Shown here piece after piece: positions 3,250 through 18,812 of a stretch of 64,000 nucleotides of DNA. The stretch lies in assembly GCF_056746865.1 (NCBI RefSeq), contig NZ_CM163382.1; one strand, written 5' to 3'. The notes below the pieces were generated by a model, which saw nothing but the letters and a program-made list of their open reading frames with translations, did not search any database and was not told where the DNA came from. A program made the translations under genes and the position numbers. Positions within the stretch are counted from its first letter, which is position 1. The number at the start of each line of letters is the position of its first letter.

Positions 3250-3530
3250 CGGGTGTTGGTGGCGTCAAAATCGCCGAAGCGTTCCCTGGAGGCCGGGGCG
3301 ACGCGCATGGATGCGCGGCGAGGGCGCATCTTACAGGGACGTTCCCTTGCGCCCGACCCGGTAGCCGCAAGGGATAAGCTGAGGGAACCGCGCAGCGGCG
3401 ATTTTGTTCGCCAGAGCCTGGGGGTGCAGGGGGCGGCGGCGATTGGCCGCCCCCTGCGCGCTCCCTGCGGCATTGACTTTATATGGCATAGCACATTAAA
3501 GGAGCGCAACCGTTCTCATATTCCAAATAG
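3250..3530. repeat. GC-rich structured intergenic element with nested inverted repeats (unclassified repeat family)
   Basis: Arm gtcaaaatcgccgaagcg (about 3263-3281) pairs with cgcagcggcgattttg (about 3391-3406); separate 9-bp G/C stem gggggcggc...gccgccccc at about 3430-3455. The ORFs called here have no RBS and repeat-like composition. Confidence 0.4.
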
Positions 3531-3765
3531 TTTTGCCCATATGTTATCTAATCAGCCTTAGTAGCCAGTCCTTCCCTCTGTTTATGTCAAATAAATGTAA
3601 CCATGAAGTTGCAAAATATGACCTCTCTTTAAAATCCAGCATTTTTCGCTTCCCGAAGCTGTAACTTTCCTTATACTCGACCTTGCAAACACTTTGTTAC
3701 ATCCTGAAAGATGCGTCGACAGAACGCACCAGGGATGTGCGACAACACAATGAAAGGATCGAAAA

Positions 3766-5010
3766 ATGACTACGCAACGTTCACCGGGGCTATTCCGGCG
3801 TCTGGCTCATGGCAGCCTGGTAAAACAAATCCTGGTCGGCCTTGTTCTGGGGATTCTTCTGGCATGGATCTCAAAACCCGCGGCGGAAGCTGTTGGTCTG
3901 TTAGGTACTTTGTTCGTCGGCGCACTGAAAGCCGTTGCCCCCATCCTGGTGTTGATGCTGGTAATGGCGTCTATTGCTAACCACCAGCACGGGCAGAAAA
4001 CCAATATCCGTCCTATTTTGTTCCTCTATCTACTGGGCACCTTCTCTGCTGCTCTGGCCGCAGTAGTCTTCAGCTTTGCCTTCCCTTCTACCCTGCACTT
4101 GTCCAGTAGCGCGGGTGATATTTCGCCGCCGTCAGGCATTGTCGAAGTGATGCGCGGGCTGGTAATGAGCATGGTTTCCAACCCCATCGACGCGCTGCTG
4201 AAAGGTAACTACATCGGGATTCTGGTGTGGGCAATTGGCCTCGGTTTCGCACTGCGTCACGGTAACGAGACCACCAAAAACCTGGTCAACGATATGTCGA
4301 ATGCCGTCACCTTTATGGTGAAACTGGTCATTCGCTTCGCACCGATCGGTATTTTTGGTCTGGTTTCTTCTACCCTGGCAACCACCGGTTTCTCCACACT
4401 GTGGGGCTACGCGCAACTGCTGGTCGTGCTGGTTGGCTGTATGCTGCTGGTGGCGCTGGTGGTTAACCCCTTGCTGGTGTGGTGGAAAATTCGTCGTAAC
4501 CCGTTCCCGCTGGTGCTGCTGTGCCTGCGCGAAAGCGGCGTGTACGCCTTCTTCACCCGCAGCTCTGCGGCGAACATTCCGGTGAATATGGCGCTGTGTG
4601 AAAAGCTGAATCTGGATCGCGATACCTATTCCGTTTCTATTCCGCTGGGTGCCACCATCAATATGGCGGGCGCAGCAATCACCATTACCGTGTTGACGCT
4701 GGCTGCGGTTAATACGCTGGGTATTCCGGTCGATCTGCCCACAGCGCTGCTGTTGAGCGTAGTGGCTTCTCTGTGTGCCTGTGGCGCATCCGGCGTGGCG
4801 GGGGGTTCTCTGCTGCTGATCCCACTGGCCTGTAATATGTTCGGTATTTCGAACGATATCGCCATGCAGGTGGTTGCCGTCGGCTTTATCATCGGCGTAT
4901 TGCAGGACTCTTGCGAAACCGCGCTGAACTCTTCAACTGACGTGCTGTTCACTGCGGCAGCTTGCCAGGCAGAAGACGATCGTCTGGCAAATAGCGCCCT
5001 GCGTAATTAA
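3766..5010 (+). CDS. sstT: Na+-coupled serine/threonine symporter SstT
   Basis: 414-aa membrane ORF; sequence recognised (DAACS family); GAAAGGA RBS upstream. Confidence 0.93.
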
Positions 5011-7150: not shown

Positions 7151-8665
<1,515 letters not shown>

Positions 8666-16124: not shown

Positions 16125-16490
16125 ATGGACTGGTATCTGAAAGTACTAAAAAATTATGTCGGTTTCCGGGGTCGTGCGCGGCGCAAAGAGTACTGGATGT
16201 TTATTCTGGTCAACATCATCTTTACGTTCGTGCTGGGGCTGCTGGATAAAATGTTAGGCTGGCAACGCGCTGGTGGCGAAGGCATCCTGACAACAATCTA
16301 CGGTATTCTGGTGTTTTTACCGTGGTGGGCGGTTCAGTTCCGCCGCCTGCACGACACCGACCGCTCGGCGTGGTGGGCACTGCTGTTCTTAATCCCGTTT
16401 ATCGGCTGGCTTATTATCATCGTCTTTAACTGCCAGGCGGGTACGCCAGGCGAAAACCGCTTTGGACCTGATCCAAAACTGGAACCTTAA
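16125..16490 (+). CDS. yhaH: DUF805-family inner-membrane protein YhaH
   Basis: ORF track 16104..16490; start at MDWYLKVLKNYVGF (121 aa); paralogous to the next gene, yhaI. Confidence 0.88.
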   Translation: MDWYLKVLKNYVGFRGRARRKEYWMFILVNIIFTFVLGLLDKMLGWQRAGGEGILTTIYGILVFLPWWAVQFRRLHDTDRSAWWALLFLIPFIGWLIIIVFNCQAGTPGENRFGPDPKLEP

Positions 16491-16731
16491 AACAAATCTG
16501 CTCGCCGGATGTCTGACTCATCCGGCTTTTATCATCATGTTGATGAATGAATAATTTACTAATGTTTAGTTAAAATATTTCAATGTCGTTATATAAATTA
16601 CATATAAAAAACAACCATATATTTATCTTAAATATTAAAACCTTTATAACATCCGAAAAAGAAAGATACGAATAGCATTTACACAATACCCGGAATAGAC
16701 TTTCGTCACTTTTAATTAAAGGGATGTTTTT

Positions 16732-17034
16732 ATGCAGTGGTATTTATCCGTATTAAAAAATTATGTTGGTTTCTCTGGTCGCGCACGTCGTAAAGAGTAC
16801 TGGATGTTTACTCTGATTAACGCCATCGTCGGCGCTATTATCAATGTCATTCAATTGATTTTAGGTTTAGAGTTTCCGTTCCTTTCTCTCATTTACCTGG
16901 CAGCAACAATCATTCCGGTCATTGCTCTGTGCGTTCGTCGTCTGCATGATACTGACCGTTCAGGTGCGTGGGCGCTTCTCTATCTGGTACCGATCATTGG
17001 CTGGTTAGTTCTGTTTGTATTTGCCTGTTGGTAA
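16732..17034 (+). CDS. yhaI: DUF805-family inner-membrane protein YhaI, 3' end disrupted by IS1 (reading frame ends ...FVFACW* with the stop inside IS1)
   Basis: ORF runs into the IS1 end at 17030; N-terminus MQWYLSVLKNYVGFSGRARRKEYWMF is paralogous to YhaH; removing IS1 and one TSD copy restores a 118-aa frame. Confidence 0.85.
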   Translation: MQWYLSVLKNYVGFSGRARRKEYWMFTLINAIVGAIINVIQLILGLEFPFLSLIYLAATIIPVIALCVRRLHDTDRSGAWALLYLVPIIGWLVLFVFACW

Positions 17035-17044
17035 TGACTCCAAC

Positions 17045-17548
17045 TTATTGATAGTGTTTTATGTTCAGATAATGCCCGATGACTTTGTCATGCAGCTCCA
17101 CCGATTTTGAGAACGACAGCGACTTCCGTCCCAGCCGTGCCAGGTGCTGCCTCAGATTCAGGTTATGCCGCTCAATTCGCTGCGTATATCGCTTGCTGAT
17201 TACGTGCAGCTTTCCCTTCAGGCGGGATTCATACAGCGGCCAGCCATCCGTCATCCATATCACCACGTCAAAGGGTGACAGCAGGCTCATAAGACGCCCC
17301 AGCGTCGCCATAGTGCGTTCACCGAATACGTGCGCAACAACCGTCTTCCGGAGCCTGTCATACGCGTAAAACAGCCAGCGCTGGCGCGATTTAGCCCCGA
17401 CGTATCCCCACTGTTCGTCCATTTCCGCGCAGACGATGACGTCACTGCCCGGCTGTATGCGCGAGGTTACCGACTGCGGCCTGAGTTTTTTAAATGGCGG
17501 AAAATCGTGTTGAGGCCAACGCCCATAATGCGGGCGGTTGCCCGGCAT
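17045..17548 (-). CDS. insB: IS1 transposase InsB (expressed as an InsAB' fusion by -1 frameshifting)
   Basis: 167-aa ORF recognised as IS1 InsB ([16 protein letters not shown]...). Confidence 0.95.
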
Positions 17549-17742
17549 CCAACGCCATTCATGGCCATATCAATGATTTTCTGGTGCGTACCGGGTTGAG
17601 AAGCGGTGTAAGTGAACTGCAGTTGCCATGTTTTACGGCAGTGAGAGCAGAGATAGCGCTGATGTCCGGCAGTGCTTTTGCCGTTACGCACCACCCCGTC
17701 AGTAGCTGAACAGGAGGGACAGCTGATAGAAACAGAAGCCAC
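17467..17742 (-). CDS. insA: IS1 InsA (zinc-finger/HTH transposition inhibitor)
   Basis: 91-aa ORF with CPSC...CSHC zinc-finger motif; canonical IS1 InsA sequence. Confidence 0.95.
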
Positions 17743-17805
17743 TGGAGCACCTCAAAAACACCATCATACACTAAATCAGTAAGTTGGCAGCATCACCTTG
17801 CCTGT

Positions 17806-17865
17806 TTAGAGGGCAATTCTGGCAGCAATCGTTACGGAAACGATCCGAAATTTGGTTCAAATTAA
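17806..17865 (+). pseudogene. yhaI: Displaced 3' fragment of yhaI (would encode the C-terminal LEGNSGSNRYGNDPKFGSN*), separated from the gene body by IS1
   Basis: In-frame continuation of the yhaI reading frame once IS1 and one TSD copy are removed. Confidence 0.75.
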
Positions 17866-17875
17866 TATTAAAATT

Positions 17876-17893
17876 GGGGCGATATTTCGCCCC
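17876..17893. terminator. Bidirectional stem-loop terminator between convergent yhaI and yhaJ
   Basis: ggggcgatatttcgcccc perfect hairpin flanked by A/T-rich sequence on both sides. Confidence 0.65.
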
Positions 17894-17915
17894 TTGTTAT
17901 TAACAATAACAAATA

Positions 17916-18812
17916 TTATTTTCCGCTAAAAAGTTTGGGAATTTCCCGCAGACACCAGGATTTCGCTTCCCCCATACTGTCACGACGCCAGGCCATAATA
18001 ATATCGATCTCGCTGGTCGATTCCGGGCTGACGACACGCAACCGCCCTTCCGCAATATCTTTTTCGACCATCGGATACGGCATCGTCGCCACGCCAAGCC
18101 CCGCCAGTAATGCCTGACGTTTATCTTCAATCGTGCTCACCGTTAAGCGCGGCTGTTTGTCCAGCAGCTGTACGGTCAACACCGGGCGCTCACGAGCGGT
18201 ATCCGCCACCGCAATTCCACGATATTTCACGCGCGTCACTTCAGATAACGGTTCCGGCTCCTGATGAATCGGGTGATCAGGCGCGGCAACGTAGACGTTC
18301 ATTAACGTATAGAGCTTGCGCGAGTTGATCTCCGACGAGGAACGAAAATGCATATCCGGCGCGATAACAATATCCGCCCGCCCCTGCTCCAGCCGTTCCC
18401 ACGCCCCCGCCAGCACTTCGGTGATAATTGCCAGTTGGGTATTGGCTTTTGCCGCCAGTTTGTCGATTAACGGGAAAAAGGCAGGTGTCGGTACCAGCGC
18501 CTCGGTCACAATGGTGAGATGCGTTTCCCAACCGCGCGCGAGAGCTTCCGCATCGGTAGTCAGTTTATCTGCGGCTTCCAGCAAAACGCGCCCTCGCTCC
18601 AGCAACATCCTCCCGACATTGGTGAATTTGGTGCGATGGCCCGAGCGGTCAAACAGCACCACATCCAGCTCTTCTTCCAGTTTTTGCATGGTGTAGCTAA
18701 GTGCGGAAGGCACGCGTCCCAGCTCATCCGCCGCCGCCGCAAAACTGCCCCGGCGATCGATCGCATCCATAACCCGTAGTGCTTCCAGCGTTAATGCCCT
18801 TTCTTTGGCCAT
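17916..18812 (-). CDS. yhaJ: LysR-family transcriptional regulator YhaJ
   Basis: 298-aa ORF; N-terminal HTH (LTLEALRVMDAIDRRGSFAAAADELGRVPSALSYTMQKLE) plus LysR substrate-binding domain. Confidence 0.92.
   Translation of the reverse strand: MAKERALTLEALRVMDAIDRRGSFAAAADELGRVPSALSYTMQKLEEELDVVLFDRSGHRTKFTNVGRMLLERGRVLLEAADKLTTDAEALARGWETHLTIVTEALVPTPAFFPLIDKLAAKANTQLAIITEVLAGAWERLEQGRADIVIAPDMHFRSSSEINSRKLYTLMNVYVAAPDHPIHQEPEPLSEVTRVKYRGIAVADTARERPVLTVQLLDKQPRLTVSTIEDKRQALLAGLGVATMPYPMVEKDIAEGRLRVVSPESTSEIDIIMAWRRDSMGEAKSWCLREIPKLFSGK

Follow-up and report, generated by a model that had tools for sequence, protein, structure and literature searches.

The window (the whole stretch of DNA that was analysed, 64 kb in length) contains the convergent genes yhaI and yhaJ, the former of which is interrupted by a complete copy of IS1. 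The interrupted yhaI open reading frame occupies positions 16732..17034 on the plus strand and ends just within the element (17030..17797), whose insA and insB are encoded by the minus strand; the severed 3' remnant of yhaI is found on the other side, at 17807..17865 on the plus strand. A bidirectional terminator-like hairpin (17876..17893) lies between this remnant and yhaJ (17916..18812, minus strand), which encodes a LysR-type regulator of 298 aa and is intact according to the list of open reading frames and the annotation of collinear genomes. The gene order yqjG-yhaH-yhaI-yhaJ-yhaK is the same in E. coli 118UI and in K-12 MG1655. The gene yhaI is an uncharacterised member of the y-ome (PMC11551758), and yhaI, yhaH and yhaJ have been reported as CpxR-modulated (PMC2731931). 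No paper that combines yhaI with IS1 was found in a search of the literature. When the entire window was scanned with Rfam for RNA genes that the insertion might affect, the only family reaching its gathering score was rnpB (RNase P RNA, RF00010; 34308-34684, minus strand, 318.6 bits), 16.5 kb away.

The IS1 copy and its target site

The element measures 768 bp, with its IRR end at 17030 and its IRL end at 17797. The terminal inverted repeats are GGTAATGACTCCAACTTATTGAT (IRR, 17030..17052, plus strand) and GGTGATGCTGCCAACTTACTGAT (IRL, 17775..17797, read on the minus strand, where it overlaps an inward-reading promoter-like site); 18 of their 23 bases were found to be complementary by script. 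All frames are located on the minus strand. The insA gene (17467-17742) is open and encodes, from a GTG start, a zinc-finger/HTH repressor of 91 aa, and the insB frame (17045-17548) is open in the ORF list. The A6C motif occupies IS positions 307-313, i.e., window positions 17491-17485. When the -1 frameshift is applied at this motif, the transframe gene insAB' (17045..17742) encodes a transposase of 232 aa, which matched the NCBIfam equivalog model NF033558 (transpos_IS1) over profile positions 1-199 of 199 with a score of 243.8 bits (cut-off 100). The ORFs of this copy are undegraded, and every sequence part of IS1 is intact in it. The frame organisation of IS1 (insA, insB, -1 frameshift at A6C, InsAB') and a weak promoter overlapping IRL have been described previously, together with the observation that only some of the IS1 sequence types of K-12 transpose appreciably (PMC12428005). 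The target-site duplication (TSD) of IS1 is 8-9 bp (PMC5009759, PMC12428005).

On the basis of its length, ends, frames, transposase model, TSD and nucleotide near-identity, the segment 17030-17797 is confirmed as a member of the IS1 family. It shares with the IS1 known from K-12 (the IS1A/IS1E 'consensus') and from plasmids the same length, IRL and IRR, insA and insB, A6C motif, InsAB' of 232 aa and TSD of 9 bp. Compared with IS1A of K-12, 760 of the 768 nucleotides are identical; the 8 differences include two that are seen in InsAB' as amino acid replacements (L81F and S130R). Identity is 100% over all 768 bp to copies carried by many conjugative plasmids of Escherichia, Salmonella, Klebsiella, Enterobacter and Citrobacter, a plasmid-common type that is labelled 'IS1-like element IS1B family' by PGAP. 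The element itself is therefore already known, and only its location, codon 100 of yhaI, is new. This copy probably came from a plasmid resident in the strain or from another IS1 on the chromosome.

The element is flanked by two copies of the 9-bp repeat TTGCCTGTT, at 17021..17029 on the left and at 17798..17806 on the right. The repeat is exact and, as determined by script, not extendable by one base on either side; no further copy of this 9-mer occurs on either strand of the 64-kb window. The chance of an exact match of nine bases at two fixed positions is approximately 4^-9, i.e., about 4e-6. The 40-mers across the junctions of yhaI::IS1 read GTTCTGTTTGTATTTGCCTGTT then GGTAATGACTCCAACTTATTG on one side and GTAAGTTGGCAGCATCACC then TTGCCTGTTTAGAGGGCAATTCTG on the other. 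Within +/-10 to 50 bp of the target, the GC content is 40-44%, as compared with 51% across the window; such an AT-rich target fits the regional preference reported for IS1 (PMC5009759). The initial annotation had proposed a complete 768-bp IS1 with insA, insB and A6C at this place, framed by an intact 9-bp duplication. Its account of length, ends, frames and motif was borne out in full, and the duplication proved to be exact and unique in the window.

Consequences for yhaI and transcription of the region

The interrupted yhaI frame consists of 99 native codons, a TGG (Trp) codon spanning the junction between target and IS, and a TAA stop codon contributed by IRR, and thus encodes 100 aa. The remnant beyond the element holds the last 19 codons (LEGNSGSNRYGNDPKFGSN) and the original stop. 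Removal in silico of IS1 and one copy of the repeat restores a YhaI ORF of 118 aa, in agreement with the earlier reading that the last 19 codons had been replaced by Trp and a stop. The restored protein matched Pfam DUF805 (PF05656) with residues 11-110 at model positions 1-110 of 111 (E=2.8e-31), so that the proposed identity of YhaI as a DUF805 membrane protein was upheld as well; it corresponds to the domain from end to end, and its closest known counterparts are the DUF805 inner-membrane proteins YhaI and YhaH of the E. coli y-ome.

Truncation at residue 99 removes the last 11 or so positions of the DUF805 model. The cut falls directly behind the last hydrophobic segment, and the three hydrophobic segments of YhaI are kept. 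The lost tail carries the motif G..G.NR.G.DPK, which is invariant across both YhaI alleles (see below) and the paralogue YhaH. Loss of this conserved motif makes it plausible, and as judged from the sequence probable, that the function of the truncated YhaI is lost or reduced.

The stop codon of yhaJ is located 118 bp from the IRL end of IS1, and the intervening 118 bp are otherwise unchanged. They include the terminator-like hairpin at 17876-17893 (7-bp stem with 6 GC pairs, found on both strands), which was not altered by the insertion. A consensus scan of positions 16400-18100 gave a single sigma-70-like match, CTGCCA-16-TATGAT (17790..17763, minus strand), which reads inward from IRL and sits where the weak IRL-overlapping promoter of IS1 has been described (PMC12428005); neither an outward promoter at the IRL end nor a new hybrid promoter facing yhaJ was detected in the same scan. 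Because both genes adjacent to IS1 point towards the element, no gene is positioned to be transcribed in the sense direction from the IS outward. The initial annotation had emphasized outward-reading IS1 sequence beside the 3' end of yhaJ. The adjacency stands, but no support was found for a functional effect, as the promoter-like site at IRL reads inward and the terminator lies in between; yhaJ is probably unaffected by the insertion.

A weak terminator-like hairpin of 5 pairs was also seen at 17027-17044, across the new junction of yhaI and IRR (GTTGGTAATGACTCCAAC then TTATTG). It is probably a chance match to the consensus.

Distribution, source lineage and other IS insertions

A search of 5,426 complete RefSeq E. 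coli genomes for the left junction (16880-17180) gave no hit. In an index of 153 billion genes the truncated YhaI (100 aa) had no exact match, nor did a junction 43-mer have one in the JGI metagenome contigs. The reconstructed empty site, used as a query of 600 bp, was covered to at least 80% in 4,358 genomes, many of them at 100% identity. Within these three collections the insertion appears to be private to the strain, as the initial annotation had presumed.

When IS1 and one copy of the repeat are left out, the window is collinear with the chromosome of E. coli 118UI; the 63,223 bp contain 1 mismatch and no gaps, and the alignment of the whole window falls into two blocks whose overlap is the 9-bp repeat. 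The claim of a simple insertion free of flanking rearrangement is thereby substantiated. The single difference in the 63.2 kb of non-IS sequence is found at window position 7915 in uxaC, which is T here and C in 118UI. Strain 118UI has been assigned to ST69 and phylogroup D (PMC8900328). The 24 kb downstream of the insertion are 100.0% identical to many chromosomes that do not carry it. Absence of the insertion from the nearest relatives that have been sequenced dates it to after their divergence from this strain. Two other assignments of the source were considered and rejected: the ST131 lineage, which had been guessed from strain names (contradicted by the assignment of 118UI to ST69), and an origin from Shigella (the flanks are 100% identical to those of ST69-like E. 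coli chromosomes).

As anticipated, the site is empty in K-12: yhaI of MG1655 is uninterrupted and encodes 118 aa. The K-12 allele, which reads TTTTCTGCA in place of TTGCCTGTT, lacks the target 9-mer, so that the proper comparators are the ST69-like genomes, which are also empty at the site.

Several genomes with identical flanks carry IS elements of their own. MS 198-1, GN04592 and GN02270, whose flanks are 100% identical, contain a separate IS1 located 93 bp downstream, in the spacer between yhaI and yhaJ (positions 3385-4170 of the extracted loci L001, L002 and L003). Its TSD is CCCTTGTTA (9 bp, window 17891-17899), at the 3' edge of the terminator hairpin. In contrast to the copy in yhaI, this IS1 is inserted in the opposite orientation, differs by 2 nt (R36H in InsA) and leaves yhaI intact at 118 aa. 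The flanks in these three genomes are split by exactly 777 bp, and the same insertion was considered for them; this was rejected on account of the other site and the opposite orientation, and the spacer IS1 is an independent event. Among further genomes with 100%-identical flanks, EECO1006 carries IS1 at the 5' end of cyuP (L008, 6304-7001; roughly window 22.6 kb) and WP7-S17-ESBL-01 carries IS5 splitting tdcA (L009, 15408-16388; roughly window 31.7 kb). The presence of these other private insertions in sister genomes indicates that IS elements are active in the lineage, in which IS polymorphism is routine.

In sixteen records the 600-bp empty-site query matched at two separate places; their yhaI-yhaJ region may contain a larger insertion or a duplication.

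Origin of the insertion

Very probably, an intact IS1 entered codon 100 of yhaI by a recent, simple transposition on an ST69-like (phylogroup D) chromosome, and the insertion is private to the strain. The transposase InsAB', made by the -1 frameshift at A6C, would have bound the IRL and IRR ends; the target, which is AT-rich locally, would then have been cut with a 9-bp stagger and joined to the element, and repair of these cuts would have generated the duplication of TTGCCTGTT. Transcription of yhaI would now enter IS1 antisense to insB and would no longer reach its own terminator. We infer that the event was recent and that it is neutral with regard to phenotype.

Three other explanations were weighed against this transposition. 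The IS1 could have been misplaced into yhaI during assembly, by collapse of a repeat or by a mis-join of contigs ending in IS1; multicopy repeats such as this element, for which an E. coli genome has about 10 matching places (median), are classic sources of such errors. A mis-join, however, would produce neither an exact 9-bp duplication nor a perfect restoration of the frame (chance about 4e-6), and both flanks are collinear with the reference genome across the site; an artefact is accordingly regarded as extremely unlikely. The insertion could also be old and lineage-wide, i.e., the fixed marker of a sub-clade, and a sub-clade represented outside the complete genomes (by drafts or non-RefSeq assemblies) could share the junction. 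It is nevertheless missing from all complete genomes, including those with 24 kb of identical flank and the relative that differs by 1 SNP in 63 kb, and its TSD is perfect, its ORFs are undegraded and the IS1 shows no private mutations relative to the plasmid copies, all of which renders great age very unlikely.

The third explanation holds that the site is a selected, recurrent target of IS1 in ST69-like extraintestinal E. coli, where inactivation of YhaI or an altered transcription or termination of yhaJ would be advantageous. Two independent IS1 copies that are 2 nt apart in sequence have indeed been inserted 93 bp from each other, in opposite orientations and between identical flanks. The reported modulation of yhaH-yhaI-yhaJ by CpxR (PMC2731931) and the conservation of the lost tail motif between paralogues also speak for this explanation. 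These are, however, just two events among thousands of genomes, in a region whose AT-richness matches the known preference of IS1, and a rough estimate from the many IS1 copies in 5,426 genomes suggests that two sites less than 100 bp apart are to be expected fairly often by chance. The spacer insertion leaves yhaI intact, so that the two events have no obvious target gene in common; other private IS insertions fall in the unrelated neighbours cyuP and tdcA, and the copy in yhaI has left the terminator in place, with no outward promoter found around it. Selection is therefore considered quite unlikely, and by the same rough estimate the closeness of the two IS1 sites, the one mildly suggestive feature, is most likely coincidental.

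The junction constitutes a unique marker of the source strain or sub-clone, usable as a PCR or k-mer signature, and has little import beyond strain typing. The interrupted gene represents a natural C-terminal truncation allele of yhaI, and the insertion is a further instance of IS elements still moving in ST69-like E. coli; nothing about its element, mechanism or regulatory arrangement is new.

Apart from the insertion, the yhaI allele itself differs from that of K-12. With the IS removed (window 16860-17830), the nucleotide identity to K-12 is 83.5%, and 102 of the 118 aa are identical; the last 19 residues are those cut off in this strain. The divergence is limited to roughly 200 bp, the part that codes for hydrophobic segments two and three, where identity is 70-88% per 100 nt, as compared with about 98% in the flanks. 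In the search with the empty-site query, 1,619 genomes fell into the band of 80-90% identity. Such banding suggests that at least two old classes of yhaI alleles exist in E. coli.
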